Shown here piece after piece: positions 1,729 through 43,815 of a stretch of DNA of 64,000 nt. The translations under genes and the position numbers were made by a program. Each line of letters opens with the position of its first letter. Positions within the stretch are counted from its first letter, which is position 1. Source of the stretch: Takakia lepidozioides. Taxonomy: Eukaryota > Plantae > Bryophyta. The stretch lies in contig CM060733.1 in the NCBI GenBank assembly GCA_030704615.1, forward strand, positions 29,388,001 through 29,452,000, read 5' to 3'. Below the pieces are notes generated by a model that saw only the letters and a program-made list of their open reading frames with translations, did no database searches and was not told the origin of the DNA.

Positions 1729-1734
1729 GTCATC

Positions 1735-3360: not shown

Positions 3361-3423
3361 CTGAGGTCCCCTGTAAGCTCCATGGAACTTGGGCTGGGCA
3401 ACCTTGCCCCCCTGACCACGCTG

Positions 3424-8166: not shown

Positions 8167-8515
8167 TGATAGAAAAGCTAAGTACACACTGTTGACACAA
8201 AACATGACAACCAAAACCATCACTCTTTAGAATAGAAGTCGAGCCAGGGGCACCCCAAGCTGTGGGGACTCCACCCCACAACAACCTACACTCCCATCAT
8301 GAGCACACTCAGTCCTACACGATGAAGGAGCTCGGTCGCGCAGGCTCAACTCGAGAGAGATGAGCCGCGCGACTGCCGCTCTCGTGAAGATAAGACGGGT
8401 CAGGTGTCAAACTAAACTTGACACCTGATTTAACACTTGACCTAAATCCAAGTGTTAAATACAAATAACTAGCTTTATTCTAGCTAGTTTCACACTGTGC
8501 TTATTTAACTTGACA
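8167..8515 (-). repeat. 5' terminal repeat (X-type LTR segment) of copy A
   Basis: TG...CA ends. Shares blocks with 41405-41731 (GGCTCAACTCGAG, CGTGAAGATAA, CTAGCTAGTTTCACACT, AACTTGACA) and contains several hairpins. Confidence 0.85.
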
Positions 8516-19305: not shown

Positions 19306-21744
19306 GAGGTTTGTTATTTCATGAGCATGAGCGGCATGAGCGGAGTAGTAAGACAATCGGTTTTCATGAGCAGAAGTACAAATTTCGAAAATAATAAATA
19401 ATAAAAAACAATAATTTAATGCAATGTGTCAGGAAAAACAAATATATTATTCGGCCCCTTGAAGGGAAAATTGCAGTTTTGACAGTTGTGCTCATGATAT
19501 TTCGTCTTCCGCTCATGCCAATTCCCAGCGACATGTGCAAATATGGCGCCGAATTTCGCGGTAATAGGGTCCGTAACCTGAAAAAACAGAGACGTATTTC
19601 GCGGTAATAGGTCTCTCTGGCGAAAATGGTGCCGAATTCCGCGGCTATAGGTCCCCTCATGACAGGTAATTCGGCGCCATTTTTCAAATGCATGTTCGGA
19701 CTTAGCCAATTTTCGGCGCAAAATAGGGAAATTCGGCGCCATTTTTCCAGACACTGTACCAGTGCATGTTGGGACTTAGCCAGTTTTCGGCCCAAAAAAG
19801 AGAAATTCGGCGCCATTTTTCCAAACACGGTACCAGTGCATGTTGGGACTTAGCCAGTTTTCGGCCCAAAAAAGAGAAATTCGGCGCCATTTTCCCAGAC
19901 ACAGGTACCAGTGCATGTTGGGACTTAGCCAGTTTTCGGCCCCAAAAAGAGAAATTCGGCGCCATTTTTCCAGAAATGACCCCAAACTGCTTCTGTTGGA
20001 TCTCAGTTTGAATGGAATATTGCCTCATTCCAGGAGTTTTGGGGTGCATTTCATTACACTGCAAAAAAAAGTCTGATACAGCAAAATGCAATTGAAAATA
20101 TCCATATGGAGGATTCCCTTTGCCCCATCAATGATTTCTGGAATCCCTAAGGAGGAGTTTGTGCAGCTCGTTCACGCTCAACGCCGGTGCATGAATAAAG
20201 TCATCAATAGTCACGTTCATCCTCAACCTCTTCAGGTAAATGTAATACAGATGATTGCACGGATAATACTTCGAACCCTTCTTTGCTTCCATCAACGAGA
20301 AGTCCGTACAATTGCAAGTCGGCTCCACTCCAATCGTAATTGTGTATACATCGTCGCGTACAGCCGAGCCGGCCGTTGCCATCCGATACACACGCCCAAG
20401 GCCGGGTGGGGGTACGTCCACGGAGCTCTGAATAGTGCAAGCCATCCCAAGAGCATTGGCAATCCGAGTCTCATTCAACTTGTTGGGAGGGTGTCGTCTC
20501 TTCACTCTTCCGAATCGCATTGTGGGATGTGCAGAATTGTCCAATCCGTCTCTACTAGACCGAGCAGTCTGCAATGGCTGGGTCTGAGGAACCGGAAATG
20601 CGTGGGTTGGGATGTCTGTGCGTTGCACCATTCGAAATCCTGATGCAGATAGAGCATCCGCCTCATTCTGAGAGAGGCTGCAACCCGGTGCAACAGGCCA
20701 GACGTCCGGAGGCTCCGGCATTCCCTGAATCCCGTACTTGGGCTTGCCAAATACACAGGTCATTATGTCGTGCCTACAGAACCAAAATGTCTACGTTGTG
20801 GCGTGAGCAAATGTGGGAGTCAAAAATCTGCCGCTGAAACAAGGTGCAGGTACAGCACCGTGTGGGTTCCTCCGAATCATCTCACCACAGCGTGCTCTCG
20901 TATCCACCCGGATGGCGCAGCACTTCCCTCGAAATGCCGGCAATGTCCTCGCAATTCTCCACTGTGACTCCGACACTCTTGTCTCCACAATGGGAATGTT
21001 GTACTGCTTTACTACAGATGGCTCGTTATGTTGCCGGGGCACGCGCCCTGTGCTCAAAGGAGATGACGATCTTGAACGTGCAGGACTTGCGGTGCTCGAC
21101 GAGACCTCCTCGGGCAACATCACCGGACCACGAGGGAGCGTGCGAATATTCTTGTCAACTCGCCATGAATCCTCTTCTCCACCAGGTGCCTCGTCAAGTC
21201 TTCGTCTCACTGGACGGGTATGAACATCTCCTTCCAAATGTTGGCCTCTTCGCAGCAATGGCGTGTCCCGAAGGCCCTCTCGCAAGGCCGCCGCCCACTT
21301 CCGAGGATTCTTCGATCTAGAGGCAGTCCGCATCAGCATTTCCTGCCTGTCCGGCCCCAAGCCCCACTGTTTCCCTTTCAAGAACTCGTTGTACCTGCAT
21401 TGCTGCATAATTGACCTCACAATGTCCTCCGTTGTGGCAGTGAGGATGTCCACCAGATGCGCCGCAGAGGAGGCACGCCAGGAAGAGTGCACTGATTCGG
21501 CCATGTTTGTCGTGGGCATGTCGGTGTCGGAGTCGAGACACATTTCCTGCACAAGCACATGTTGAGGTTACAAGCAAGTTACAAATATGGCCAAGAATAA
21601 TATTCAACGGGACGCGAATTCGTGCAACTCACCTCCCGCATATAGTCGCCGAACTGGAGGAAACGATAATGCCACCATGCTAGCCAACTGACCATTGCTC
21701 CCTCGTCTGATTTCCTTACAGCACCTGACGATGTCCACCAAGCC
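19306..21744 (-). mobile_element. Mutator-like (MULE) element copy 1: terminus and 3' part of transposase with SWIM finger
   Basis: TTNMAESVHSSW (catalytic E region), WLAWWHYR exon, SWIM CNCTDF...PCNHLYY. Terminus GAGGTTTG is followed by 74-75-bp tandem repeats. Confidence 0.75.
19660..19975. repeat. 74-75-bp subterminal tandem repeat (about 4 units; duplicated at ~22110-22425)
   Basis: Unit GGTACCAGTGCATGTTGGGACTTAGCCAGTTTTCGGCCCAAAAAAGAGAAATTCGGCGCCATTTTTCCAGACAC. Confidence 0.9.
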
Positions 21745-23860
21745 GAGGTTTGCTATTTCATGAGCATGAGCGGCATGAGCGGCATGAGCGGAGTAGTAAG
21801 ACAATCGGTTTTCATGAGCAGAAGTACAAATTTCGAAAATAAAAAACAATAAAAAACAATAATTTAATGCAATGTGTCAGGAAAAACAAATATATTATTC
21901 GGCCCCTTGAAGGGAAAATTGCAGTTTTGACAGTTGTGCTCATGATATTTCGTCTTCCGCTCATGCCAGTTCCCAGCGACATGTGCAAATATGGCGCCGA
22001 ATTTCGCGGTAATAGGGTCCGTAACCTGAAAAAACGGAGACGTATTTCGCGGTAATATGTCTCTCTGGCGAAAAATGGTGCCGAATTCCGCGGCTATAGG
22101 TCCCCTCATGACAGGTAATTCGGCGCCATTTTTCCAGTGCATGTTCGGACTTAGCCAGTTTTCGACGCAAAATAGGGAAATTCGGCGCCATTTTTCCAGA
22201 CACGGTACCAGTGCATGTTGGGACTTAGCCAGTTTTCGGCCCAAAAAAGAGAAATTCGGCGCCATTTTTCCAGACACGGTACCAGTGCATGTTGGGACTT
22301 AGCCAGTTTTCGGCCCAAAAAAGAGAAATTCGGCGCCATTTTCCCAGACACAGGTACCAGTGCATGTTGGGACTTCGCTAGTTTTCGGCCCCAAAAAGAA
22401 AAACTCGGCGCCATTTTTCCAGAAATGGCCCCAAACTGCTTCTGTTGGATCTCAGTTTGAATGGAATATTGCCTCATTCCAGGAGTTTTGGGGTGCATTT
22501 CATTACACTGCAAAAAAAAGTCTGATACAGCAAAATGCAATTGAAAATATCCATATGGAGGATTCCCTTTGCCCCATCAATGATTTCTGGAATCCCTAAG
22601 GAGGAGTTTGTGCAGCTCGTTCACGCTCAACGCCGGTGCATGAATAAAGTCATCAATAGTCACGTTCATCCGTAACCTTTTCAGGTAAATGTAATACAGA
22701 TGATTGCACGGATAATACTTCGAACCCTTCTTTGCTTCCATCAACGAGAAGTCCGTACAATTGCAAGTCGGCTCCACTCCAATCGTAATTGTGTATACAT
22801 CGTCGCGTACAGCCGAGCCGGCCGTTGCCATCCGATACACACGCCCAAGGCCGGGTGGGGGTACGTCCACGGAGCTCTGAATAGTGCAAGCCATCCCAAG
22901 AGCATTGGCAATCCGAGTCTCATTCAACTTGTTGGGAGGGTGTCGTCTCTTCACTCTTCCGAATCGCATTGTGGGATGTGCAGAATTGTCCAATCCGTCT
23001 CTACTGGACCGAGCAGTCTGCAATGGCTGGGTCTGAGGAACCGGAAATGCGTGGGCCGGGATGTGAAGGTGCATTTGGCGGGCAAATGAAGTCCCCAACA
23101 GCCCTGTATATGATGTTGTCCGATGGTGGAACTCGCCATTCCCTGCCATCGCCGAAATCATTGTGGAGCACAACAATACTCTCGACAACAAGGCCGTTTG
23201 AGTCCTTCCTTTCCTCCTCCAAAAAAACCGACCCCGGTTTCAGGTGGTATCGAACGCATAGATATTCCTCCATCACCCGGCAGATGTCCCCTCTGCACGG
23301 AAATGAAGCTCTATGCTCGTGAGGAGGGCAGTACACTGTAGCGCTCGGGTTTTCCGCCATGGGAGATGTGCACACAAGACTGCCAGGATGGCGTGCGGGG
23401 AAGCTCCCTGGTAGAAGGGGGATGCAGCGAAGGGAAGGAATGCGGTGCCGATTTGTCCGAGCGACGAAGCCTGATCCAAATCCAGGGAGCCATATCTCAA
23501 AAATCCATAGTCAGAGTGTTAATGAACCTTGTCTCCGGAATGCGGCCCCTGGTCTTTGCACAATAACTGCCAACGGTATGCAGTCAGAAAGTGGGGGGCC
23601 GTCCGGATGATGATGGCTGAAGGGGAGAAGCCGGCACCGTGCCGTCACATTACTACCCCTGAATGGAAATTCGGCACCCAATATCCAACAGGGGCCGCAC
23701 GGATGAAGTCGTCTGGAGCAGAGATGCCGGCACCTGTCCGACAGAGAACATCCCCCGGACGGAAATTCAGCGCCGAATTTCCATTCGGATCCCCCCAAAG
23801 GAAGTCCACCATACAAGCTGCTGCTGCACATCGGACACTGCAGTCTTGTCACTTTTGACT
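21745..23860 (-). mobile_element. MULE copy 2, internally deleted
   Basis: 21745-23064 is nearly identical to 19306-20615 and starts at the same GAGGTTTG terminus, then switches to different sequence with AATTCGGC(A/G)CC motifs. Confidence 0.72.
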
Positions 23861-26800
23861 TCCTAGTCGGCCCATGCTGGTAAGTATGATGTTAATCATT
23901 CTTTGGTCATCAAGCAACAGAAGAGGATTTTCTTCAAACACCAGGACCTGGTTTAGGTCTGGGGTCATTATGTTACCACCTTAACAAGGTGTTTGCAAGG
24001 TAAAAAAGACATTTTAATGAAGTTCAGAAATGCTATAGTGCCAATACATGTTCAAACCCCAATGTTACACAGGTTTTGAAGTCATAACATCTGAAGAAAA
24101 GGCTGTGTTGCCAGATATCAGAGCAGCTGATATCTTCAATCCAACCTACCAAGAGTCTATAAAGCCAGTACATGTTTTTCTAAAAAAACAAAAGCTTGCT
24201 TTTAGAAGAGTAATTCTGGGTCCCCACCAGTCCATGTTTCTTGTGGAGCAGAAACAATGAGTCCTGTGTTATTTTATTGTAACCCAAAAGCCACAAACAC
24301 AACTGTATACAATCTGTAATTACAGAGTGACATGAAGAGGTAGTAGGTTACTTACCTTAGCAGATTGTATGCAAGGTAAAAAATGAAAGGGGGTTCAGAA
24401 AGCCACAGAGGTTCCATAGATTGAGCACATAAAGGCATACAGGGCTTAGTATAAACTAGATGCAAGCTCTGGCCTCTCCCCTACCGTGTTGCTTGAAAGT
24501 GTACATATCAGAGTAGCAAATCGTGCTCTAAGCATGAAAAAAGAGCATATATTTGGTCTGGAAACCCTACTTCCAGTACCATATTTCAATGCAGCGGAAA
24601 TCATAACCCAGAGTCCTTAATAGAATTCATGTGTTCTAAAAAGGCTCGCTAATGCACTTGCTGCTTCAACACAGAGATAAAGGTTGTAAGCATATCCAGA
24701 TTGGTCAAGGTAGGGAGGCAAAAATGAGACATCTCCCTGGATAATCAGCTGATGTCGATGTCACTTCACTTGCAGGTTTGTCATCAGATTCAAGCTTCAA
24801 AAATCACATTAAGTGAGGACCCTCACCTGGTCCCATCACAAGCCCCCACAAGAACCAACAGGTTAGTGAGAATTGTGGAACCCTAGGTGAATCGGGTCTC
24901 ACGCTTGTTATCGCTGTACAACATGAGTTCTAAAGCAAGAATCAATTCTAAACACAAGCAAGGTTATCCACAACCTTAATCGATTGCGGAAGAGGACTCG
25001 ACATCGCTCCAAGCACTTGACAATCAACAGCACAAACAAGCAATGGTTTGCTGAAATCTATGCGCATTTTAACAGGTGAAGAAACCCCCTGAGTTTTTAT
25101 GAGCAGTGTTGAAACTTAATGATCCAGAGAGGATCTACAAGCAATCGGGTAGCCTAAGGTAGATTGCCCGCCAAGGGAATAGGCCACCATACTGAGGGAA
25201 TTGAAGCACTGCCGCCGTTACGCATCCCAAGGGAGATGAGAAAGGACTGGAATCTTGCCAGAGTACTTGTAAGCAGCATTGAAGCGTCTCCATATCCATC
25301 AAAATCATAAAATTCATGCTAAGAGATCCCTCTGACACCATCACTTCATCTCCCGTAGAAAAAACGCACAGTGTCGTGCAAGATTTATGGCAGGAGAGGA
25401 AATATGGCAAACCATTGTGATTTCATCCATGTGGGATGAAAAATAAGGAATGAAAGGTGAATATTCCCCTGTTGTCATCGCCATGTCATCCAGCAGGGAT
25501 GACATCCTAAAATCGATGACTAGAACCTGGCATTCATTAGGGTTAGATATAAATGACCTTAATAATCCAAAGGAACAAGGTAAAAAATGATAACCAGAAT
25601 TAACATTTAATGGAATTCATCCATTATTAACTATATCCGGTATGGATGAAGATAGCAGAAAGTTAATTATAGTTTAGTAAAAAATTACCTTAGTACCAAA
25701 CCCTCTGGGTTATGGAATAAGTTACCAACAGGATCCATGTACAGAGGGAGAGAGAGAGGGAGAGAGAGGGGGAGAGGGAGAGGGAGAGGGAGAGGGAGAC
25801 AGGGTGCATGACAAAAAAAAAAAAAAAAAAAAAAGGTGGGTGCGGGGGGGGGGGGAGTGACTGAGCAGCAGAAGCTGCTCAGTCAGCCCCCCCCCCATCC
25901 TTCTTTTTTGTTTTTTTTATCCTCTCGCTCTCTCCCTCTCTCTCTCCCTCTCCCTCTCTCCATCTCTGTCCCTCTCCATCTCTCTCTCTCATGTTTTTCT
26001 TTCCATTTTGTCCCATAAGCTCGATGAGCTTCCCGCGGACGTTATAACGCACCATTTCATTTCATTTCTCTCTTCTCTCTCCCTCTGCCCCTATCCCTCT
26101 CTCTCCCTCTGTTTTGTCACTCCCCACAAAAAGGAACAAAGGAGAGAGGGAGAGGGAGAGCGCCTACCTCTGTGGCGTCGGCGCTGCTGCCTACGGCGTG
26201 TGTCCCCGCCGCCGGAAGGCCTCCCTCCCCCGCTCCACCACGCCTCTCTCTCTCTCTTGTGCTGCTGCTGCTCCCGCCTCTATGCGGCTTTCCTACCACC
26301 CAGGGGACAGAGGTGTTAGCACCCTCTTAGGGTTTGGAGAGGAAGAGTGGAAGTGAGAGAAGGAGGGAGCTTACCAGCGGGATTGGAGTGGCGCTAGGGC
26401 GTCTTTGCGTGGCGACCACCTCACGCTCAAGACGAGGTTAGTTTCTCCTCCACATTCTCCCCTACACTCTCAGCCCTGTCCCTCCCAAAGGAGAAATGAA
26501 AACGGGGGGGGGGGGGCAGGTGCTTCAAGCACTTAGAAAAAAAAAAAGGCGCGGCGCCGATCTGCCACGCCTGGCCGTCACATGTCGGCGCCCCGCCTTT
26601 TTTTTTAATGTACATTGAAGCTTGCCACGCCCGGCCGTCGCAGCGTGCGACCCCCCGGCGTGGCAAGGTAAAAAAACCCGTCGCAGCCTGCGATCCCCCG
26701 GCGTGGTAGGGTCAAAAAATCCGTCGTATGATGCGACGCTGGGTAGTGGCATGAAGCATGGCAGGGCGTCGCATGCCCAGGCTCCCCCTTGTATGTTGGG

Positions 26801-28450: not shown

Positions 28451-30337
28451 CCCTATTTAGAGTTAGAGGGGCGACGCTTTTGTTTTCTGATGATCATAAC
28501 TCTACCATCTCGGTACACCGTGTAGTGTCCCTGTGCCCGAGCCTGTTTAACTTGCGAGTTGAGCCCGCATGGCATTGTACTGCATGGGGGTCAAATCCTC
28601 ATTCAAATACATGTCGTGGGCTCTAAATTGAGGCCTCTGACGTAGAACCCTCTCCCGAGCACCCTTGTCCCTAAATCTGATGAACAAGACTTTGTGCTAT
28701 GAAGTTCCTGCATGCACAACTCAGCCTTAGATTTGTCTTTCTAAGTTGTGTCTATGACGCCAATTTACTACAACTTCATCTGCATCAATGGGGGGAGCGC
28801 ATAGCACTAACGGAGCTGCCAGTAGGTAGGGATGGAGTCTTTCCATCCAATTCGTGAGTTGAAAATCTGCCTACAGAAGACATTGTCTTTTCCCCAAGAG
28901 TCATTCGAAGGTTGCAAGCAACCGGGTTCTCCTTATATTGTCGCATTTGGGAAGAGCTCATGTCACAAGTACAAACCAGGATTTGCGAGCCTCAGACATT
29001 AGGCCTGAGTGAGCCAAGTACAACACCTTATGTAACACAATGGATAGCATTTTGAAAGACTACTACACACCTCATTTTCCAAATATGCTAGACTACAGTT
29101 CCTCTTAGCGATTCCCAAACTGGACGAGCAAAAAATGTTCCCTTTTCTGATGGTCAGTAGCAAAGAAAGAGTAGATCAGTAGTTTAGATTCGGGGTCTAT
29201 AAAGAATACTAGTCTTTCTCCAAACCGCATCTGCAAAAGTCACTAGGCAATGTTCTATATCTTCTGGAGAATGCAGATTGTAGGTAGTACAATTAGAAGG
29301 AGCATCAGAAAAGAGAGCGCCAACATGAATGATTCTGTTAGCTATCTTCCATCGAAATACATCAATCTTAGATGATCTGTGCTTCTTCCAGATATCTCCC
29401 TAGACAGGTTTCCAAGGGATAGGATGTCCTGGTACAAGAGCCCATTTGTTGGTCCATTTGCGTTCAAAGATCCGCTTTGGCATAGGCAGAATGTAACCCA
29501 GTCTCATTGAATAGCTTAAGACTGGTCATGGTTTTTCCGAATCCATTCTCCAGGGTCAAACTGCAGCAGTCTCAAGGGAGCAGATAGAACCAGTGAAATG
29601 AGCGATTATAGTGACGTAGCTCAGCAGCCGATGGAAGCGGATTCAGTTTACCCGAGATCGAGCAGAATGTTAGATTTATCAAATACAAATATTAATATAA
29701 ACATAATACCTATAGTATGAGCTCTCTCCTAACCATAGAAGACATTCTAAAAACAAATGCCTCATCCCTGAACTCGTCTCTTACATGAAGGTCTAGTACT
29801 GAAGTGGTTGTAACTACCAGTTCACTTATTATTGACTCATTAACCTACTGAATGAACTCATCCTCTAACACTACCACTTAGGTTGTTGGTAAGTGCAGCA
29901 CCATTTAATGTATCACTCAAAGTTGATAATGAGAAGACATCAGTCCAAGTTTAGTCTAGAGGTGATCAATCTCTCAATAGCTATTAACTGGAAATTAATG
30001 TCATGGACATTAATCTTCAAGTAATTCTAAGAGGGTTCCATATGAAAGGACTACCGCTCAAAGTCCGGTGACACATTTCTCATGCTTGAACTTGGTCAAT
30101 GATTTTGTAAATATATCAGCAATATTATTTTCAGTAGTGCAATAATGTAACTTCAGAAATCCTCCCCTGTTGCATTTAAAAATAATAATAATGCGGACAA
30201 CATAATTACGGTAAATTTGAATACCCAAGATATAATGAACCGGACCATTATCAGTCATTCCATAAGTGGATTTTAGCTTATTTTTTGTGTCCAAGAGTAA
30301 ACCAGAATTATCAGAAAATAATAGAGCATCATCCACA

Positions 30338-30526
30338 TGTCGTACGCATACATATCGCTACACAACTACATCGTTGTCCAAAACCACACAACACATGTGC
30401 ACGCCACACACTAGTATATCACTAGTCCATCACTAGTCCAGCCACTAGTCCAACCACTAGGCTACAACTAGTCAGTCACTAGGCTGGCACTATGCTGCCC
30501 ATTATGGCAGTCACTAGTCCACACAA
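30338..30526 (-). repeat. Repeat Y, outer copy (3' terminus of copy B)
   Basis: Near-identical to 30856-31043; rich in CACTAG motifs. Confidence 0.95.
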
Positions 30527-30853
30527 TGATAAAGAAAAAGAATACAAGCACAAGCTCATGCGAGCTCACAAAGCTGAAGCATAAACTCATGCATATATAA
30601 CCTCATCACTCAAATACAAGTCAAGCCAAATGCACCCCACGCCATGGGGAATCCACACTACGACGTCATAGCTAGGCGCGGTGAGGCTCAACTCGAAAAA
30701 GATGAGCCTCCCGCGCTTGCCGTGAAGATAACCACTCCAGGGCCTAAATCTGCCTTGACCCCTAGATTGACACTTGGGCAAATCCCAAATGTCAATATGT
30801 AAAAACTAGCTATTTCCTAGCTAGTTTCACACTAGTGGTAAAATAACTTGACA
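30527..30853 (-). repeat. Repeat X, internal 3' copy
   Basis: 327 bp, about ten substitutions (counted by eye) relative to 41405-41731. Confidence 0.95.
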
Positions 30854-30855
30854 GT

Positions 30856-31043
30856 TGTCGTGCGCATACATATCGCTACACAACTACATCGTTGTCCAAA
30901 ACCACACAACACATGTGCACGCCACACACTAGTATATCACTAGTCCATCACTAGTCCATCACTAGTCCAACCACTAGGCTACAACTAGTCAGTCACTAGG
31001 CTGCCACTATGCTGCCCATTATGGCAGTCACTAGTCCACACAA
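30856..31043 (-). repeat. Repeat Y, inner copy, directly downstream of a polypurine tract
   Basis: Near-identical to 30338-30526. The minus strand reads AGGGGGGCGA (31044-31053) then TTGTGTGG. Confidence 0.95.
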
Positions 31044-31302
31044 TCGCCCCCCTAGCTGGTGCTTAGGTCCCTCTAAGTCCAGGTAGCCACAAGATGTGAT
31101 AGTGACCATAGCCTCACTAAGTCTTCCACCACTATCCCTACTACACTCAAACTCGATAGATCAAGAGGCCGGGTGCAAGAGTTGCCCCATCGTTAGTCGC
31201 CGTCTTGCAACCTATGAACTTGAGCTTGGGATCTCATGTATTAACTCCTATGAGCTTGGCCTCCCATGTCTTGTTAGCTGCCTCCAGTCATGTCCATTGC
31301 CA

Positions 31303-31446
31303 CTATCCCAAGTAGTGTGGACACAACCAATCTCCGTCAGGAACCTTCTCAAGAGGTGGAGTTAAGCATCCCATATGCCAACCCCTTGAGCATCGATCAC
31401 ACGCCAGCATGGTGGCTGCCCCTTTGGCAAACCCACAGAGCATGCA
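31303..31446 (-). pseudogene. PHD finger at the integrase C-terminus
   Basis: Manual translation: CMLCGFAKGAATMLACDRCSRGWHMGCLTPPLEKVPDGDWLCPHY*. This is a C4HC3 pattern with the last Cys changed to Tyr; it is not in the ORF track. Confidence 0.9.
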
Positions 31447-31544
31447 CCTCAAACCTGCAGGTGCCACTGCCAAGTTTGGGTCAACTCTGCCATCGACATT
31501 GGGAAGATGACATGGCGCACAATTACGAACATGGTCCTTTTAAG

Positions 31545-33491
31545 TCATGCCATCCGACCCTCCAAGATCAGGACCCCTGAGGGCAACACCTCTCGAACCC
31601 TCAGAATAACACGCCCTGCAGTAACATCCAGAGTCGTAGGAGCAGTCTGCTGCAAATAAACATAGTCACCAGGGCTAAACCTCCGAACCCCAGGACGATA
31701 TCCTCCACCACGTATAGTGGCATACCTCAACGTATCACGGTGCTGTGCAATGGCAAGGTTATCAAAAGCCATGGGCATGACTTTCTTGAACAACTTTGCA
31801 CGCTGATCACATGCACGTACCGACACGTCCGGATCGTCAAGGTTAAGGACTTGAGCAGTGTCCCTACGAATGGCTGCAGGCAAATCCGGCTCTCAGCCAA
31901 ATAGAAGGAAATATGGTGAGAAGGAGGCAAGTGATGCTTGTTTGCTGAACCTGTAGCCCATGGCTAACCAATGAACCTGAAGATCCCAATCTCCTAGGTG
32001 TCCCTTCTGCAAGCCATACTTGCGCAAACCCCTCTTCACCGTCTGAACAACTCTCTCTGCTAAGCCATCGGCCTCAGGATGATCCCGAGAAGTGGTGCGG
32101 TGGTTTATCAAGGCTTTATCACACAAAGCCTGAAACTCCCCCAAGAACTCTCTCCCTTGGTCCATGAGTACCTCAGCTGGAGCACCAAATCGGCTAAGTA
32201 CACGATCCAAGAATGCATACGTAGCCCCCTCACTAGCCTTGTCAGGCAATGGAACCAACTCAATCCACTTGGAGAAGTGCTCCACCATCACCAACACATA
32301 TCTGTGGTGGCGCATAGTCAGTGGCAACGGTCCTGCGAAGTCAAGACTCCACCTGTAGCCCAATCCCATGATTGGTAAAGGATGCAACTGTGGTGTAGGG
32401 GTGTTGAATGAAGCACGCACCCTGTCACACACCATGCACCTAGCCACGAACTGTTGCACCTCTCTATGCATACCACGCCACCAATACTGCCCTTGCAGTA
32501 AACTGTGAGTACGTCGCACTCCAAAATGCCCCAACTCCTCATGGGCATGCCGCACTAACCGTGCACGCTGTGTGGGGTGAGGCACAATCCTCACCCGACC
32601 ATCCTCCCACACTCGAAGTAGGTGTATCCCCTCCCACTTGAACCTCTTGGCTCGTTGCAGGATCCGATCCCTCTCCCTGGCAGTCACAATGGCTGCCGTG
32701 TCTCCCGTGCGGAGGTAGTCCAACACAGCCGAATCCTCATGTATATCTCTGGCACCACCTGGCTCATCACTAGCCTCAGGGTCCTCAGACACTCCGTCTA
32801 CAGTCATCCCTGTTGTAGGTCCAACCTGACCTCCCGATGCCAAGATACACAAAAATGCAGATGCGTGCCATCCCGGCACCATCTCCTCGTCCGTCTCACC
32901 ATGCCACCGAGCTCCAGTGTCATCTTGCTGGCTCATGCATGGATTGCGACTCAATCCATCCGCATCTCGATTGACCAAACCCAGTCGATGCACAACCTGA
33001 AAGTCATACTCCTGGAGTATGAGCGCCCACCGTGCAAGCTTCCCCGTAAGCTTGTCTGACTCCATCAACCACTTGAGTGGCTGGTGATCTGTGACAAGGG
33101 TGAAAAGATTGTTGTATAGATAGCACCTGAAGTGTGCCACGGCCCACACTGCAGCTAAGCACTCTCCCTCATATGAGCTGTACTTAGCCTCTACAGCGTT
33201 GTTTGAGCGGCTAGCATAAGCCACTACGAACTCTTCTCCCTCATCATCCACCTGTGTGAGCACCGCTCCAAGCCCCAGCATGCTCCAATCCGTATGCAGC
33301 TGAAAGGGACGCCCCCTGATAGGTCGTCTCAGGATAGGTGCCGAGGTCAACCTCGCCTTGAGCTCTTGAAAAGCTCGTTCCTGCTCATCTTCCCACTGCC
33401 ACTCCTGGTCCACCTTGGTCAGCTTGGTTAGAGCCTTTGCAATGGTACTAAATCCCTTGACAAACCGTCTATAATAGTTTGCCAACCCCAT
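31545..33491 (-). CDS. RT connection, RNase H and DDE integrase of copy B
   Basis: GLANYYRRFVKGFS, LHTDWS, YEGECLA, TDHQPL, NRDADGLSR, H-H-C-C finger (HEELGH...CMVC), WSLDFAGPLP, DQGREF, DGLAERVVQ, FSPGDYVYL. Confidence 0.95.
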
Positions 33492-34300
33492 GAAAGCTCG
33501 AACTCAGCTCACATCCGTGGGGCGTGGAATTTGTGCAATGGCCTCTACCTTAGTCTGCTATACCCCCAATCCTCCTGGATATATCATGTGACCTAGATGC
33601 TCAATCTGGTTGTGGAAAAACTTGCACTTCCCCGGATGCAACTTCAATCCGTGCGCTCTCAAGCGCTCCAATACCACCTGAAGGTGTCTCTCATGCTCCT
33701 CCATCGTAACACTAAAGATGATGATGTCATCTATGTAGCACCGAGCAAAGTCCACCCCTGCTAGAATCCTATCCATGACTCTCTGAAACTCTGCAGGAGC
33801 ATTCTTAAGCCCAAATGGTAAGAACCGCCACTGATATAGGCAATCATTGCCATGCTCATTGATCCCCTAGAATGCCGTCTTCTGCTTGTCCGCCTCTTTG
33901 ATTGGCAACTGGTGATATCCGGATCATAAATCCAAAGTGCTAAAGACCTTAGCATGCCCGATGGCATCAAAGATCTCCTCTGGTGTTGGCATGACATACT
34001 TATCGGACTTGGTCTGACAATTTACAGGCCGGTAATCACCGCACATACGTCTCTCTGTCCAATTGCCATAGACATCCTTCTTGGCTGGCATCACTGTGGC
34101 TGAAGCATACTCTCCACCAGAGAGCTCCACCAAACCTGCCTCCCAGAGATCTTGAGTCCTCATCTGAATCAAAGACCTCTCCATGTCACTGTATCTATAG
34201 GGTCTCCGAAAGATTGGCGTGTCAGTGGCCAACTCAATATGGATCTCTTGACCCTTCAGTGCTCCCAAGTCCTTCAAACTGAAGGCAAAGCAATTCCTGT
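33492..34300 (-). pseudogene. Gypsy reverse transcriptase of copy B (nonsense mutations)
   Basis: RMCGDYRPVN, FSTLDL, LPFGLKNAP, CYIDDIIIFS, LKLHPGKCKF, with in-frame stops. Confidence 0.93.
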
Positions 34301-34739
34301 AAGCCCTTAGGAACCGCCGTATATGTCGTCTCTCTCCTCCGGTGACAATGGGTCCAATGTCAGGCTCCCAATTGTCCTCCGTAACTGCAACCTTAAGTCC
34401 AGTGGGCTTAGAGGTAGAGGACGCGTCCAGTGGTTGCTATGTTGCAACCTCTTGAGCAGTACTCCCTACCTGCTCAGTCAGTGACAAGGCCTCATCCTGC
34501 CCCATCATCTCATCCTCAAGGACTTCCTCCACCCGAGAAAAATCCCCAACCTCATCTTTCATCGCCACCTTGGCTGCCAACTCCCTCTGAACCTCGAGCA
34601 CCTCCCACGTGTGCCATGGATACATGCACCCCGTGGTCCTCACATGCTCGCCCCCACTCACTGCCTGTACCGTCTCGGTAGGCAGAGAGACCATCGAGGG
34701 AAGTGTACTCCGCACTCTGCGTTGCTCAGCCATAGCCAA

Positions 34740-35700
34740 GCTAATAATCCAGGTCAAGCAATTGAGATCCATTGCTTGCCCCAACACTTGACGACGTGAT
34801 GCCTCAGAAAGAGACGACACCGCCGTGGTACCAGTGGTAAAAACCCATTGCCCGCTCACGCTCGTCAGCATTAGGCTCCACTAACTGCTGCAACTGAGCA
34901 TCCACAGGAGGCCAGGTCCACTATCCCGGAAAGCATGCGATCCTGGGAAGCTGAGCAGTGTAGATAATGTTGCTCGTGGTTGACCCACCTTGTTGACCAC
35001 TGCCAAAGGCAAACGGTCATCGTGTCTCACACGCTGAGACTGCCTCACTGTGTCCAGAATGCTATCCACTGTGAGATGTGCTGGCCACTGCACCCCATCA
35101 AATGCACGCTTGAGCAGTGCGGGTGGCATCAAGTTAGTCCACCATAGTCGTGGACGATGAGCCCGTGACCCCACTGTAGCTGCACCTAGCAACACTGCTG
35201 ACCCAAGCCACGACCGGACTTGATGCACACTAGCCATCAGCCTGGCCCGAGAATCGCCCATCAGTGGCACATTCTCCAAGATGTATGCTGGAGATACAGC
35301 TTGATGAAGCTGCAAGTGGCGCAAAACCCGCACCATCTCCCAAAACAGACCCGACCTCGAGTCTCGCAATCCATTGCCATGCCCGGCTGATGAATGCCCT
35401 TGGCAGGGCCAACCTGCCACTACCAGATCAATGGAGCCAACCCGCTCCAAATCCTGCGCCCCTTGTAAAGAAATGTCTGTTGGCAAGGCCTGCTGATATC
35501 CACGAATTGCAGACACCGACAACAACTCAGGGTACCGCTGCACCAACTAAGCAACATGGCGAAGTGAAATGCGTCGTGCAGTCTCATCCCTCTCCACATA
35601 CAGATAACGCGGAACTCGTACACCTGCCTGTAATACAGCAGCCAATCCGGTGCTGATCCCGCCAAACAAGTCCAGAAGACAAATGCCTTCATCCGGATAC
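34740..35700 (-). pseudogene. DNMT3-like C5 cytosine methyltransferase domain of copy B
   Basis: LLDLFGGISTGL, IDLVVAGWPCQGHS, LFWEMVRVL, YILENV, AHRPRLWWTNL, RRQVLGQAMD. Confidence 0.93.
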
Positions 35701-35992
35701 TGCCACACAATAGGTGTGGTATCCAATGGAGACAACTGAGGTGGTCCTGGTGCAATCCCCGCACTCTCCTCCTCTCCTGACGGTACAAAAGCCTCCACAG
35801 CTTGTTGAACCCGTCGATCAGCATCCCGCTGCAAATCCTTGCTTGTGCCCCACAATGGAGTCTGAGCAACCATGGTAGGCAACTCCGCCATACCATACAT
35901 GTCATCCTCCTCTCCCGGAGGTGGCACATCCTCTGAATAAGCGTTGCCCTCAAACAACTCTCTAGGCGAACTCACTGTCGCTGTGAATGCTG

Positions 35993-38623
35993 CTATGTCG
36001 GCATCTTGCCTCGCTGGGCAACCGCAACTCCTCCTATGAACGTCACAGGGAGCTGCACACGCCGGCCCTCCCCTGACTGCCATGCAGGCCTATAGGAAGC
36101 TGACTCCTCCCAAAAATCCAGGGTGAAGCCCATGGGGTACAACACTGCCCTACCAACCAGGACATCGTATGAGACCGCGTCTGTCACAATGGCCTTGGCT
36201 CGCATCACTGAGCCATCTGTAGGGTGATCCGGCCGTAGTCTGATAGCCAACTCACGCCGTGTCATGCCCGAGCCTGCTCCAATCCTCCCAGAGACGTCTG
36301 TATCTGGAAAGGACAAGGCTCCATATCCGCCTCTGTGAGGCCCAAGCCTGCAATAGCAGCTCTGCCCAGCATCAATGGCTGAGCTCTCAAGTCCAACAAG
36401 ACCCGCAGTGGCCGGTACCTCTTGCCTGCCAGTCCACTCAAACAGAAAATGCCATCCTGGTTGTCTAACATGACAACTCCAGGTGTCACCATGGCGCGCT
36501 CAATGGCTGGCCTAGCTGGCAGCTCCATCAACCTGGCAGCTGCAGCTTGCCATGGCGCCACCGTAGCAGTCTTGACTCTCAAATCCGAGGATCCCTCCGG
36601 CACTACACCTCCCACTATCTCCGCAGAAGATGAAGTAACCTCCCCACTCTCACAAAGTGTAGCTGCCAGCCTGAACACCTCAGCTGGTCTTACCCCCGGC
36701 GTCGCAATCATGGTAGCCGAGAACAATGGAGCCTGGCACACAGATGTGGCCACTCCTAGCAGCACACTAGCTGCCGTAGCCTTGGCAACACTAGGTAGTG
36801 GTGCTACCAGTGTAGCTCTCCCCAATGGCATAGTAACCTCCGCCTTGGTAACAGTCGGGCGAGAACTAGGTGCTATGGATGGCGTCGACACTGTCTCCGC
36901 CAATGTGAATGACTGAGGAAGCCTAGCCCGACGGCTTTGCCTCCCCACGCTGTGGATCAACTCCACCTCTGCACCTCGTGGCTCAGAACTCGTGCTGCTC
37001 CTCGAGTCACACGGCTGCAGCAGACTCCACCTGCAACTAGTGGTAGTGCTTCTCCACACATGAATCGCCATGCCTCCCATATCTCCTCCCTCAGGAGCAG
37101 GAGGTGGACCATCCGGCCTAGAGCCTTACCACCAGAGCTGTAGCCATGGCAGGCGAGCCTCTCTGCTCTAGCTGCTGAGCCGGTTGGCCATGCCTTTGTC
37201 AACACCTGACCTCCGCGTCCTTGGCCATGTTGAGGCTTGCCCCTTGGCCTGCACCTTGTGTGACTGGCCACCCTCGTCCTCTTTGGGCTGCTCCACTCGC
37301 CCCGGCCACCATTGTTCCCTGGAACTGGCCTGGGCGCAACACAAGATGCAAACCATAACACTGGGCCTCTCCATGCCCGTGCTTGCCACAATGCCCACAT
37401 GCTTTTAACTGTGCAGGTTGTGCATGTGCTGGCCCTTTGCTCGCGCTCTGGGCAATCCTTCTTGACATGGGGTCCTCCACATGTCCAGCACACCACATCC
37501 GCCCGTTGTTGGCCGGCAAATGAAGGGAGAGACCCCTGCATCTGAGGTCCTTTCTGCCCTTCCCTGAGCTTCACCTGAGCCCCCTTGTTGCCTTGAGCAC
37601 GTTGAGGTAGTGGTTGGCTAGGAGCACCACCCCCCGTGGTGTCTCTTTAGCAAATCCCACCATGACCACTCGTTCCTCACCATATTGAGCTCTATCCGCT
37701 TTGCCAGCAAAAACACATTTGCTAAGGTGGGTTGGGCGCTTGGGATTGTAGAGAGAGTTGCATCCCGCACCCTTCTCCTCAGCTCCTTGTCAATATCCCA
37801 TACCAGAATTGGACTGCCTGAGCTTCCGTAACCCCTTGGGTTACATTTATCAAGCGCCTCATGCGAGTGAAAGCCTCCCTCAAGCTCTCGGTCGGCTTCC
37901 GTTGGAACTCTTGCAAGCTCCGCAACTTCTCTGTCCTCACCCCTTGGTAGTTCCCTCTCAACTCTTCGAAGAACTCCACAACAGGGTTGAAGGCAGGCAC
38001 GGGTACTAGTGCTGGTGCGGTAGTGGCTTGGGTGACGTCGTAGCTACTGTACCACCAGTCCCACTAGTCCCACTGCTACTTGCTGAAGCTGCCGGTGCAG
38101 CGGCAGGTGTAGCCACTGCCCTCGTGGCTCTAGTGCCCCTAGTGATGGAGACATAGTCGGGTGACCAGTACATCCTCCACTCCTCGATCTCAACCTCATG
38201 CCCCCGCCTGAACTCATGGTAATCATCCATAGGCGGCCCCTCAAGGTGCTGAAACAGCCCCTTCCATGCCATGAAAGGCGTAAATAGTTGTGGATTGCGC
38301 ATTTGCTGCAAATCACACCAACTATCAAACTCTTGGATAAAATCATCCAACTCGATGGTGCCCACCGCCCCAGAGTACCTTCGTGGCCCCTTGGTAGCTC
38401 CATACATCTCCTCCATTGTGTCCCACAACAATGGCAAAGAAACAACTTGCACCGCCGGTATGAGTCCTCCTGATTCACAATCCGAATCAGAACCTTCCGT
38501 AGAAGACACAGGAGGTGAAGGTGGCCTAAACCGCACACCTCGTCTCGTGTACCCACTAGTATCGCTAGTGCTCGAACCGGCACTGTCCCCAGCAACTAGT
38601 GGCACCTCCGTGTTGACACTCAA
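35993..38623 (-). pseudogene. Gag, zinc knuckles and protease of copy B (many frameshifts)
   Basis: Collinear with copy A: YSGAVGTIELDDFIQEFDSW, CWTCGGPHVKKDC, CGHCGKHGHGEAQC, VLLDLRAQPLML. Confidence 0.88.
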
Positions 38624-38899
38624 CCGGTCATGAACATGTCCCTAACCCCCTCTCCACAAGGTAACCGGGTAGAGAACCTGTTGCGGCTTATGGTTTGGAA
38701 TACTAAGTTCCTAACATAGCCTACACCTGTATTTGCATGACCATTGGATATCAGTGATTACTCCTCAAACCGCCCTCCACGAGCTTCAAAATTTGGCCTT
38801 CAAGACCACATGCCAGTCCTTAGGCAGTCCACCAGTGCCTCCAGATCAGCACAGGCCCGTCCACAGGTCAACACGGGCCACCACATACCAGCACAGGCC

Positions 38900-39880
38900 C
38901 ACACAGCTCACTGGTCACAGCCGTCAGCCCCAACAGGCCACTGGGCTTAGCCGTCACAGCCCGCCGCAGCCTGTTTACAGCCCTCGACAGCTCGTCACGC
39001 CCCCGCAGCCTGTTTTACAGCCCTCACAGCTCGTCACAGCTCGCCACAGCCTTCCACAGCCCATCACAGCCTCACAGGCCACATGGCATAGCCTGTCATA
39101 GCCCCCAATACTCACACATCCTGTAACAGCCCCGTCACAGCCCCACAGGCCCAGGCACAGCCTCTCATAGCCCCTCACAGCCGTCACAGCTTGCCACAGC
39201 CCGTCACAGTCCCACAGGCCACAAGGCGCAGCCTGTCACAGCCCGTCACAGCCCCATAGGCCATAGGGCATAGCTGTCACAGCCCCTCACAGCCCGTCAC
39301 AGCCCCATGGCCACTGGGCTTAGCCTTCACAGCCCTCACAGCCGTCACAGCTCGCCACAGCCTGTCACAGCCCCACAGCCACGGGCACAACTTGTCACAA
39401 CCCGCCACAGCCTGTCACAGCCCACACAGCCCGTCACAGCCCCACAGGCCACTGGGCATAGCATGTCACAGCCCATCACAGCCCCACAGGCCACAGGGCA
39501 CAGCCTGTCACAGCCCCTTATAGCCCGTCACAGCCCCACACCACGGGGCACAGCTGTCAAGCCCCTCACAGCCCGTCACAACCCCACAGGCCATTGGGCA
39601 CAGCCTGCACAGCCTATCACAGCCCCTCACAGCCCCAAAGGCCTCAGGCATGGCCTACACAGCCCCTCACAGCCCCTCACAGCCCCAAGGCCTCAGGCAC
39701 GGCCTGTCACAGCCCCTCACAGCCCATCACAGCCCCAAAGGCCACGGGCCCAGCCTGTCACAGCCTCTCACAGCCCGTCACAGCCCCAAAGCCAAGGGCG
39801 CAGCCCATCACAGCCCGTCACAGCCCCAAAAGGCCACCGGCATAGCCCCTCACAGCCCGTCACAGCCCCATCCATGGCCG
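38900..39880. repeat. ~1-kb degenerate minisatellite (TCACAGCCC core) in the leader of copy B
   Basis: Dozens of CACAGCC units in short higher-order blocks. Confidence 0.92.
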
Positions 39881-41404
39881 CTCTGGCAGTTTAGCCATTT
39901 CTCCAAGGGGTTTAGCCACGCTAAGCTAGGGTTTGTGTCTCTTGGACTCTAGGCTTCTTTCCACCGAGCTATGGCGGCTGTGAGGAAATCAGCAAGGTAT
40001 TCTTGCTCTTTCGGCTCCCACACACCACCATAGTAGCCCTAAGCCATGAGGTGGTTGCCACAAACCAAGCCTTCTTTTCTCAATGGCAAACAACCAAAGC
40101 CCTGCTGGTTCCCAGCCCTTGTGAGCACTCATTCAAGCACTCTCCTTGGCCATAGCATCTGTCTTAGAGCCTATTCCAGCCCCCTACACTTGCTGCTTCA
40201 AGAGTTGCGCTCCCTTCAAGCTTGAAGTTGAAACCCCAACTCTTATAGGCCCTACAAGTGCTTTTCTTTCACTCCAAGTGGAAACCAGCCCTAGACCTTC
40301 CGTTCTAGCTCTCTAAAGCTGAAAACAAGAGCCTCAATGGGCTGAAGGCATGCTCCACACATGCCCCACTCTCACCATAAGAGAATCAGCTCCTTTGCTT
40401 CATTTCTTGCACCCACAAACCTGAAAATACAAGCTTCAGCAGGTTGAAAGCATGCTCCACATGCCCTACAGGGAAACCAGCCCCTTCCTTCCTTTCTTGC
40501 ACTCCACACCCGAAAGTGCAAGCCTTCACCAGGCTGATAGTATGCTCCACACATGCATTGCCCTCACATAAGGGAAGTCAGCCCTTCCCTCTTCCTTGCT
40601 TGCCCTCCAAGCTTGAAGATGAAAGCTTCAATGAGCTTAATACATGCTCCACACATGCAACCTCTTCACACAAGAGATATCAGCCCCCTATCTTGGCTCC
40701 TTGGCTCCTTGATGCTCTCTAAGACAAGACTAAGCACTCCATAGCCCTTGCCAAGCTGAAACCCTAAGGCTTACATTTCCAGCCACAAGACACTCATCTT
40801 GTGGTGCAAGAACTTTTCTTCCAAACTCTGAAACCCTAGGTACACATTCCATGGCCTTGCCGCACCTCTTAGCTCCTGTTCCAGCCCCGCTCTTGCCATG
40901 GCAAGAGCCCTCATACCGCTGGAGTTTCAGATTGAAACCCCCAACTCAACATAGCCACAAATGCATTGGCTTGCATACAAGAGAAATCAGCCATCTCTCT
41001 TCACTCATACCTCCTTATGAGCTTGAAGTTGGAGCTCCCGATAACTGTGACTTACATCTAACACCCTCGCAGCTCCACTTTGCTGCAGCTCCTTAACTTG
41101 GCCTGCAGCTGAAGAAGACGACCACCCGTTCACCCACTCGAGACCAGCATCTCCCCCGCTTCACACTAGAAGCCCAAACTTGGTTGCCATAGCGTTGAGC
41201 TATGCAACGCCGCTCTTCAACATAGGCTACCCGCCTCTCTATCTATTGCAAACCTGCAACCTGTTCGCCTTTGCACTCTATCTACTTTGGATAGGCTCAT
41301 GCACGGATCCCTGCACTCTAGGCTAAACCGCTTCTCATGAAAACACAAGTGCTACAAAACAACTCGAACCTGGCACTCACAGACTTGAGCTGATCTTTCT
41401 CGAG

Positions 41405-41731
41405 TGATAACGAAGAAGAATACAAGCACAAGCTCATGCGAGCTCACAAAGCTGAAGCATAAACTCATGCATATATAACCTCATCACTCAAATACAAGTC
41501 AAGCCAAGTGCACCCCACGCCATGGGGAATCCACACTACGGCGCCATAGCTAGGCGCGGTGAGGCTCAACTCGAGAAAGATGAGCCTCCCGCGCTTGCCG
41601 TGAAGATAACCACTCCAGGGCCTAAATTTGCCTTGACCCCTGGATTGACACTTGGGCCAATCCCAAATGTCAATATGTAAAAGCTAGCTATTTCCTAGCT
41701 AGTTTCACACTAGTGGTAAAATAACTTGACA
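41405..41731 (-). repeat. Repeat X, 5' terminus of copy B
   Basis: Minus strand reads TGTCAAG...TTATCA, followed by the PBS-position sequence CTCGAGAAAGAT. Confidence 0.95.
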
Positions 41732-43815
41732 CACATACAAAGCGATAATGGTAATGAAACGGTTGAAACGATTAATGTACACATTAGAGTCGGATGAACT
41801 AGGAATCCAACACCATGAAGGTCAGTGTCAATGGGCTCATACCACACTTGAGGAGCTTGTTTAAGGCCATGAAGGCTACGGAGCAACTGATACACATTTG
41901 TTTCGTGGCCAGGTTTAACAAAGCCTTCAGGTTGAGACATATATATAGAGAGAGAGAAGACTCCGGCCGAAGCCGGCGTAACTAAGAGCCACTTTGCCCT
42001 ATGGCTACTATCCCCTTTCGGGGGTGGTTGAGACATATATAGTACTATGCAAAGTAAATTACTATGCAAAAAAGTTGTCTTAACATCCATTTGATGGACC
42101 TCCCAGTTATGGACCGCAACCAAGGCTAACAAAGTATGAATTGAAGTTATCTTAACAACACGAGAAAATGTGTCTTGATAATCAACCCCTATCACTTGAG
42201 AATAGCCCTTGGGCATAAGATGTGCATTATACCGTTCAACGATGCCATTGGCTTTAAGTTTAATTTTAAACAACCATTTGCAACAAATGGGCTTACGGCC
42301 TACCGGCAATGCAACTAAGTCCCAAGTATGATTCTTGATGAGAGAGTCATATTCAGAGGTGATCGCCGCTTGCCAATATTGAGAGTCAGATCGAGAGTTG
42401 ATGGTCTCTTGATAAGACAAAGGCTCTGTCAAATTAGGGACACTCTAATGATAATTAGGATATTTAGGATTAGGCTTGAGTTTCCTACCGTATCGAGAGG
42501 TAGAGGATGTAGGAGTAAGTTTATCAAAGGTAAACCCAAAAAAGTCAAGTCCGGGAAATGCTCCCACAACATCAGCCCCACTGGTTGACTTGGAAGGGAG
42601 AATTGTACCTCTGCAATAGGGGTCATCGTCATGATCAGAATAAAATAATGGATTATTAACCAGAGATTGGTGGGAAGGCGTGGAGACTAGAAACTAATGA
42701 CCAGAGGAGGGAGACCTGGAAGAGGTTGGGGAACATTAGGAACGTGTGGATGTGGAACCATAAGAGGGACAACATTATTATATAGGGGCCCCACCACAAA
42801 CTTATCAAGTTCTGAAGTAGGTGGTATAACCTCAGAGCATCCCCACTCTACGCCTCTATGGACCCTGCACCCGTACTTCTCGTATGTAGGTTCAGATTCG
42901 CCTCCAAACGTACCACACCTTTGCCCCACTACCGTATACGCCGTTAAGGGCGGACACTGAACCGCCTCTCTTTCACTGAATACGTGCACAATATTCAGTC
43001 TCCTACATCCGTTCTTGAACCGAGTCGTCCCGACCATGGATATGTCAGAACGCACCGCCCAGCCTCTCCCGCGTTGGTAGTGAAGGTAGGCGGTGGGTCT
43101 CGAACGTGATATGAGAACATCACTGGAAACTCCAACAAGGCGGGAACATAGGATGCAGGGGCGTAACGAGGGGCAAAGGTGTGGCTACAGGCAGCCAACC
43201 CCTTCATACACCTTTCGAGAGTCCTAAACCAACCCCTTCACAATAGCTATAGAGGGGCCATTTCAGTGAGAAGGGTGGGGATGCTCTCATGTACAACTGC
43301 TGTAACACGTTTTTCTCCGAAAAGAGTGGTGGTTTCGGAGGAACGAAGAAGCGGGGCGCAAAAGAGCTTTTAGACTTGCACATGGCGCTTCCAAGCTCTG
43401 CCCGGGCACTAACGTTCCCACACCAAAATGCCCTCAGAGCCTTTTGAGGCTTCATTTTCCAACCCATCAAGAGCAAGGCATGCCATTACCTAGAAATTGC
43501 ATAATAAAAAGCAAGGAGTCAATTCGTCAACCCTGGTCCATATTGGATTTCGGTGCCCCCTTGGTTTTAAGGGTGCCGAATGTAGGAAAGCTCAATTCCT
43601 GTTCAGTCGTTTTGTAAATCTTCTTGAAAAATTACATCATGACTAAAAATGGTTGTCTTAGCTTAAATGTCATAAAGCCGATAATCTTTGGTAGATTCGC
43701 CATATCCCAAGAAGCCACATTGATGGGTTTTACTATCCCAATTTTTCTATGCTCCTTAAGAAGATGAGCATAAGCATAGCATCTAATATTCTCAAATGAG
43801 ATATAAAAGGCTTAA

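Follow-up and report, generated by a model that had tools for sequence, protein, structure and literature searches.

Split direct repeats and integrated ends inside the predicted long terminal repeat of a Gypsy-like retrotransposon family in Takakia lepidozioides

In this study, we performed a sequence analysis of a 64,000-nucleotide stretch of the Takakia lepidozioides genome (assembly GCA_030704615.1, contig CM060733.1, positions 29,388,001 to 29,452,000; the whole stretch is called the window), in which a retrotransposon, copy B, carries two repeated sequences, X and Y, in the order X, open reading frames (ORFs), Y, X and Y, and a second copy, copy A, runs off the window. The accepted view is that the integration of long terminal repeat (LTR) elements and retroviruses starts from the ends of linear cDNA, and circle junctions as true precursors are the matter of an old dispute (PMC1180852, PMC4372172). 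Foamy-virus integrase cuts the palindromic LTR-LTR junction after CA on both strands in vitro, leaving a 2-nt 5' overhang (PMC1180852), HIV-1 2-LTR circles have been reported to feed integration (PMC4372172), and 2-LTR circles arise by end-joining, with 1-LTR circles as gapped intermediates (PMC7197481). Split direct repeats in the order A1-ORFs-B1-A2-B2 occur in PAT, TOC, Kangaroo, Ngaro and VIPER, which have a tyrosine recombinase, no integrase and no target-site duplication (TSD), some of them with a methyltransferase (PMC4157794, PMC6681497, PMC8969392). KnitGypsy-Dnmt3 of Klebsormidium nitens (de Mendoza et al., 2018) is described in the legend of Fig. 4c as having Gypsy domains and DIRS-type repeats in the order A-coding-B-A-B (PMC5890265), and "Gypsy-DNMT3" is named in a bioRxiv preprint (10.64898/2026.05.21.726589). 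Tf1/Sushi and the plant Tcn1 chromoviruses, which bear chromodomains and count as ordinary LTR elements, show predicted self-priming without a tRNA (PMC6317226).

The first-pass annotation of the window had held the layout of copy B to be untypical of Gypsy elements, which overstated its novelty, since the layout had already been stated for KnitGypsy-Dnmt3. The available text of PMC5890265 gives no TSD, primer-binding site (PBS), polypurine tract (PPT), junction or mechanism for that element. In the literature searched, with most subscription journals and Repbase reports lying outside it, no account of a mechanism for the split-repeat layout with a DDE integrase was found, and the layout appeared in that legend only. 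The layout is thus already known from one legend sentence, and the mechanism apparently is not. Our analyses showed that the permuted layout is real, family-wide and old. On balance, they suggest that a conserved palindrome within the predicted LTR marks the ends of inserted copies, and that the integrase probably cuts this palindrome in a cDNA that has probably been circularized first.

Repeat layout and coding content of copy B

Self-comparison and junction read-out resolved copy B, in element sense on the minus strand, as X (41731-41405), internal region, Y (31043-30856), the dinucleotide AC, X (30853-30527) and Y (30526-30338). The X pair shows 10 differences in 327 bp and the Y pair 3 substitutions and 1 indel in 189 (the internal Y has 188 bp), which are similar divergences (Fisher p 0.39), and X and Y share no likeness beyond 9-10 bases. 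The AC spacer (30855-30854) between the internal Y and the 3' X is missing at both termini, where the first bases of the element are TGTCA and the last are CGACA, with TGTG (CACA on the plus strand) on either side; the TG...CA ends and the 4-bp TSD are both as for Ty3/Gypsy elements (4-5 bp). The coordinates, the order of repeats, the missing spacer and the CACA duplication given in the first-pass annotation were all recovered in this way. In translation, the left flank gives ...IIALYV and the right flank VDDALLF..., the two halves of one Copia reverse transcriptase (RT) motif (RVT_2), so that the TSD and the ends of copy B are fixed independently of the repeats. In addition, the terminal junction between flank and Y is crossed, with zero differences, by contigs from two runs of one sample. 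In the copy B family, the element does not end in two complete and identical LTRs with the PBS and PPT as their boundaries. The features of copy B and its flanks, in element order and with their basis in brackets, are as follows.

41732-42444, minus strand: host Copia RT remnant, upstream half; the downstream half continues below 30337 (RVT_2 E 4.6e-41; flank translations)
41732-41735, minus strand: left copy of the TSD, TGTG in element sense (junction read-out)
41405-41731, minus strand: 5' X repeat, beginning TGTCA; 41581-41569 is the predicted self-primer (self-comparison, complement search, fold)
41393-41405, minus strand: predicted self-priming PBS, a 13-nt complement of X positions 151-163 (shuffles and fold)
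38896-40687, minus strand: two degenerate tandem-repeat arrays in the 5' leader (self-comparison)
37782-38641, minus strand: gag, in pieces (Retrotrans_gag E 1.5e-4, under the curated cut-off; 86% identical to copy A)
35996-37646, minus strand: putative zinc-knuckle and protease region, broken (no Pfam match; copy A has VLLDSGA, and relatives have PF13650 beside the methylase)
34884-36089, minus strand: C5 cytosine DNA methylase domain, broken (PF00145 E 4.4e-13)
33561-34436, minus strand: RT, broken (RVT_1 E 2.4e-24)
31896-33503, minus strand: RNase H and DDE integrase with H2C2 zinc finger, rve core and D-34-E spacing (profile matches, alignment)
31306-31539, minus strand: PHD finger downstream of the integrase (PF00628 E 1.1e-10)
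31044-31057, minus strand: PPT adjoining Y (sequence; equal position in related families)
30856-31043, minus strand: internal Y repeat, ending CGACA (self-comparison, junction read-out)
30850-30859, minus strand: internal Y/X junction GACA-AC-TGTC (GC in most copies), the proposed integrase attachment site (sequence)
30527-30853, minus strand: 3' X repeat (self-comparison, junction read-out)
30338-30526, minus strand: terminal Y repeat, its start fused to the X end in a proposed end-joined cDNA junction (self-comparison, joints)
30334-30337, minus strand: right copy of the TSD (junction read-out)

The Pfam scan covered all 59 stop-free six-frame segments of at least 70 aa in copy B and matched gag (weakly), a C5 DNA methylase, RT, RNase H, an integrase zinc finger, the rve core and a PHD finger; gag followed by RT-RNase H-integrase is the Ty3/Gypsy domain order. 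Neither a tyrosine recombinase nor a chromodomain was matched in these 59 segments; rve is present, and a PHD finger follows the integrase instead of a chromodomain. The integrase is of the DDE type, with an HHCC domain and the full catalytic triad, and the best relatives of copy B among solved structures are Ty3 Gag-Pol and foamy-virus integrase. The second D and the E are 34 residues apart (core 32160-32055) in copy B and likewise in 50 of 50 motif-matching relatives, with one residue more in Ty3 and foamy-virus integrase; this spacing may or may not relate to cutting at an internal site. The nearest named proteins are those of Riccia (77%) and Calypogeia (76%), followed by Closterium and Klebsormidium (45-47%). 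Relatives of the methylase are Pol proteins of Marchantia, Calypogeia, Sphagnum and Klebsormidium, and the copy B domain matches the general PF00145 profile. By themselves, these protein matches point to a bryophyte-grade plant as the likely host. The reading frames are interrupted by stops and shifts, which indicates that the copy is dead. Copy B belongs with the Ty3/Gypsy elements rather than with PAT/Ngaro; it is broken, and it carries a C5 DNA methylase and a PHD finger in addition to a DDE integrase.

Element ends and reverse-transcription signals in the family

The survey of ends comprised 79 loci of relatives from metagenome contigs of an AT-richer host, representing three further families with X and Y of their own. 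Thirty-three loci were excluded from the 3' count, 27 in which no Y was matched downstream of the integrase, mostly for shortness, and six damaged or cut (L040, L042, L046, L060, L075 and L077). The 46 resolved loci were 35 when distinguished by flank, with 19 Y-X-Y ends, 16 single-Y ends and none ending at X, and all 11 same-flank locus pairs agreed in 3' class. The 5' count, which omits loci without a full X start, including the partial L009 and L011, gave 10 loci, nine of them distinct, all starting at X after unrelated DNA, as both window copies do. Canonical symmetric LTR ends were found at 0 of 11 5' ends (relatives and window copies together) and 0 of 35 3' ends. The two outcomes that the first-pass annotation had named as contrary to its reading, mostly symmetric LTRs and a one-off or artefactual layout, were looked for and not seen in these counts or in the five families that have the layout. 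Counting copy B, six of nine full-length elements had an exact 4-bp TSD (cross-match rate 0.02); among the eight full-length loci of relatives, it was exact in L007, L041, L014, L031 and L035. Five loci (L014, L018, L031, L035 and L036) are full-length X...Y without a terminal repeat, three of them with an exact 4-bp TSD. The X and Y pairs were about equally diverged in 3 of 4 elements. The annotated combination of a DDE integrase with a 4-bp TSD is borne out by the rve core, the D-34-E spacing and these duplications. On the question raised there whether each copy has X...Y-X-Y plus a TSD, 19 of the 35 distinct 3' ends of relatives are Y-X-Y and 16 have a single Y, the TSD being exact in six of nine elements.

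A fifth family, including the young copy L081, was found in genome bins, which likely represent plant contamination, and no X or Y similarity among the five families with this layout was detectable in a BLAST map. L082, a distant relative with 45% integrase identity and 60% GC content, has the order RT-RNase H-methylase-integrase, as against methylase-RT in copy B, and ends at the same junction motif about 150 bp past its PPT. The 127-bp terminal overlap of L080 was considered as a physical circle and read instead as an assembler cycle. A search of viral contigs for relatives gave no match. At L018:368-735 and L042:581-901 (minus), X is followed by Y away from any integrase match, and these are candidate solo XY units.

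The Takakia family was checked in public contigs of four runs from at most three samples, in which the copy B sequence is deeply covered relative to its flank, a depth not taken as copy number. Among the loose ends listed, mixed sequence occurred past the Y end (37 and 23 contigs, agreement 0.37 and 0.40) and before the X start (23 contigs, agreement 0.38; 2 contigs in another run), and none occurred at the Y start or the X end; the X end runs on into the PBS (8 contigs, agreement 0.97). Loose ends at 31039 (36, 26 and 3 contigs, agreement about 0.56) are short and look like Y variants, which does not fully explain them.

The bases 3' of the 5' X in copy B are the exact complement, over 13 nt, of X 151-163 (best of 200 shuffles, 9), and the two are paired in the predicted RNA fold (z -6.8). 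By appearance, this PBS is a self-priming complement and not a tRNA site; the place at the X end given in the first-pass annotation is upheld, and its nature is refined accordingly. The complement differs in sequence by family, with 13 nt in copy B, 15 in copy A, 17 in L006/L007 and 15 in L072, and the copy A match lies at the equivalent place with a compensatory change. A G-rich tract adjoins Y in all families examined. Since a covarying self-priming PBS follows X and the PPT adjoins Y, the LTR used in reverse transcription is likely Y+X, with priming predicted; this placement and the family-wide ends agree with the earlier claim that the LTR is Y+X and that the integrated ends fall at the Y/X boundary. 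At the cDNA termini expected for YX-internal-YX, no TG...CA is kept across families (the X of one family ends TTTTG).

Junctions and the proposed route of integration

The majority spacer of the Y/X junction in the Takakia contigs is GC (depth 777,084 of 811,903 in run X1), which makes GACA-GC-TGTC a perfect 10-bp palindrome; the AC spacer reported in the first-pass annotation is correct for copy B and is a minority variant in the family. The motif, searched with a pattern that requires a 2-nt spacer (evidence on spacer length comes from other junction analyses), was present in 23 of 24 Y-X-Y loci, with the spacers GC in 9, AC in 10, AT in 3 and TC in 1. GC is also the spacer in young L081, whose two Y copies are 100% identical, and in the 45%-identical relative L082, where it lies at the contig end. 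The X|Y joints vary, with 0-4 extra bases like those of the PBS or PPT and, in L019, about 17 inserted nt that are similar to X sequence close by; 18 of the 19 listed joints lie within a few bases of exact, and part of the variation may be later mutation. A Y/X junction that stays constant at the ends, together with an X|Y joint that varies where the PBS and PPT boundaries meet, is expected if the cDNA ends are joined and the integrase cuts elsewhere, and the X|Y joint, judged from its sequence, varies like an end-joined junction. Most junction changes in L002-L078 turn G to A on the sense strand (AC 10, AT 3, GT 0 of 23), and TATC is common too.

What is directly seen is the X-ORFs-Y-X-Y order, the TG...CA ends, the 4-bp TSD and the DDE integrase. 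The signals described above strongly suggest that the RNA would start inside X, self-prime at the PBS and use the PPT, giving a cDNA of the form YX-internal-YX. Host end-joining would then probably fuse the X end to the Y start, leaving the variable X|Y joint, and the integrase would cut both strands of GACA-GC-TGTC after CA, producing two recessed CA-3' ends with 2-nt 5' overhangs that, like processed retroviral ends, would be inserted with a 4-bp stagger. A cut after CA on both strands would remove the 2-nt spacer from the termini, as observed. More speculatively, the upstream site might be chosen since it would be double-stranded first after second strand transfer, needing about 0.5 kb of synthesis as against about 10 kb for the downstream site; such an early choice would explain why X...Y-X-Y is the only form. 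X...Y copies could derive from 1-LTR circles opened at the same site, from double cuts or from later Y-Y deletion. The element is likely Gypsy-like up to the cDNA and circle-opening-like at integration. The first-pass annotation had proposed a circular permutation of a 2-LTR circle; the placing of the integrated ends at the Y/X boundary gained support, and a free circle is a likely substrate at most, as a linear cut with later joining gives the same product and the mirror form is 0 of 11.

Several observations weigh against this route. Because the site occurs twice, in identical form, in a 2-LTR circle, opening should yield X-Y-X...Y and X...Y-X-Y equally often. The mirror form, X-Y-X...Y, was absent from all 11 5' ends (with even chances, 0.5^11 = 0.0005; counting the X...Y copies would make this less extreme), the five full-length single-Y loci also having a plain X start. 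The missing mirror form needs an extra asymmetry, for which an assembly bias against the longer tandem repeat is a possible cause. We infer both the circle and the cleavage, and sequence alone cannot order joining and cutting. AC exceeds GC among old loci (10 vs. 9), GT is nearly absent (0 of 23), and the G-to-A bias at the Y/X junction is unexplained by even decay of a palindrome. The TSD matches at 3 of 4 positions in L018 and is absent from L036 and L072, the X pair of L041 is more diverged than its Y pair (p 0.019), and the self-priming match is no better than the best shuffle in 7 of 12 old loci, which are decayed. Furthermore, the relatives are short-read metagenome contigs, and L001 and L002, at 99.4% identity, nonetheless fall into different 3' classes and have different flanks, so that some ends may be mis-joined or recombined.

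A linear YX-internal-YX cDNA might instead be cut at the upstream site and inserted by both cut ends, the loose cDNA ends being joined later by host repair or earlier by an end-to-end jump of RT. This would yield the identical product and a variable X|Y joint, would fit an early choice of the upstream site and would agree with the damaged 3' ends of L040, L046 and L060; the transient chromosome break that it would presumably need at each insertion and the near-exact state of 18 of the 19 listed joints speak against it, and we consider it unlikely, though the strongest of the competing accounts. Somewhat less probable is a PAT/Ngaro-like route, in which the RNA would run from X through the terminal Y, the X|Y joint would be inherited and the internal Y/X junction would only template a new circle junction for the integrase. 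By itself, that route accounts for A-B-A-B without a mirror form, and the layout equals that of PAT, Ngaro and VIPER. Against it, every family has a PPT where Y starts and, where X ends, a PBS that covaries; the X|Y joint fuses exactly these two boundaries, and the bases on its primer side differ between copies.

An ordinary element, either with an X+Y LTR that lost Y from the 5' LTR and gained an extra Y or with a Y+X LTR and rearranged ends, is very improbable. Although X+Y has TGTC...GACA ends like a normal LTR, Y stood before or after X in 0 of 11 5' ends, 0 of 35 3' ends stopped at X, and the PBS lies directly after X and the PPT directly before Y; in the loci examined, this explanation is refuted. 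L001 and L002 show that ends can be mis-joined, but a one-off rearrangement or assembly artefact, to which we give hardly any credence, is refuted for the family by the same layout in five families, the 11 of 11 same-flank pairs agreeing in class, the TSD that splits a Copia motif, the contigs across the terminal junction and the layout published for Klebsormidium.

If integrase-mediated opening of a joined cDNA is true, a natural high-copy lineage with an attachment site inside its LTR would offer a clean test case, in which the enzyme is named, the substrate has 10 bp and the product can be seen. The ends made by RT would be uncoupled from the ends used by integrase, and a simple route to split direct repeats of the tyrosine-recombinase type would be suggested. 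We see about even chances that an old streptophyte lineage dropped cDNA-end integration, with a palindrome in the LTR as attachment site, circles as the normal substrate and the split-repeat layout reached independently. Programs that need symmetric LTRs and a TSD would likely mis-call X...Y-X-Y and miss X...Y copies.

Other features of the window and comparison with known systems

Copy A is represented in the window by two parts.

8153-8515, minus strand: X homologue (349 bp, 8515-8167) and 15-nt self-priming PBS, with no Y upstream (junction read-out, complement search)
1-4380, minus strand: gag, protease and methylase region, running off the window (self-comparison, translation, profiles)

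The X homologue starts TGTCAAG with no Y before it, in line with the earlier statement that copy A begins there. It presumably belongs with the ORFs at 1-4380, from which it is separated by 3.8 kb of unrelated DNA. This leader (8150-4400, PBS to gag) contains host-like fragments, with an FMN dehydrogenase (glycolate-oxidase-like) piece and a PAS piece, both on the plus strand; the FMN piece appears intronless, which suggests a captured mRNA. A stretch near 7460 in the leader resembles a TruA pseudouridine synthase motif. Elsewhere in the window, 19306-20615 and 21745-23064 form a 1.3-kb direct duplication (97.5%) over a zinc-finger ORF, whose motif we take to be SWIM-like, and a 62-77 bp tandem array. 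Direct and inverted repeats, short and interleaved, lie at 14449-15019, a 250-bp imperfect palindrome at 25743-25989, and host gene exons with a SPARK domain, likely of a receptor-like kinase, at 50794-52524.

Like KnitGypsy-Dnmt3, copy B has a C5 methylase within a Gypsy Pol together with DIRS-like repeats; the lineage of copy B differs from that element, as described, in extending to liverwort- and moss-type hosts, in its very high copy number, in the PHD finger and in the existence of X...Y copies without a terminal repeat. The K. nitens protein P0162 (methylase, RT, RNase H and integrase), which is not tied to KnitGypsy-Dnmt3, shows 51% identity over RNase H-integrase and 44% over the methylase. 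In a 41-row integrase tree built without canonical Gypsy outgroups and without L047 and P0170, whose matches are short, P0162 falls just outside a 39-row group and other Klebsormidium rows fall inside it. With PAT, Ngaro and VIPER, copy B shares split direct repeats in the order A1-B1-A2-B2, and it differs from them in having a DDE integrase, a 4-bp TSD, a PBS and a PPT. The predicted self-priming PBS is a likeness to Tf1/Sushi and Tcn1, from which copy B, compared by features, is set apart by a PHD finger instead of a chromodomain and by its permuted ends. Finally, the proposed double-strand cut after CA in a palindrome, with 2-nt 5' overhangs, resembles the cleavage of the 2-LTR junction in foamy virus and HIV-1; in those viruses the cut falls at the joint of the cDNA ends and the provirus is colinear, whereas here the proposed site would be preformed inside the LTR and the product would be permuted.

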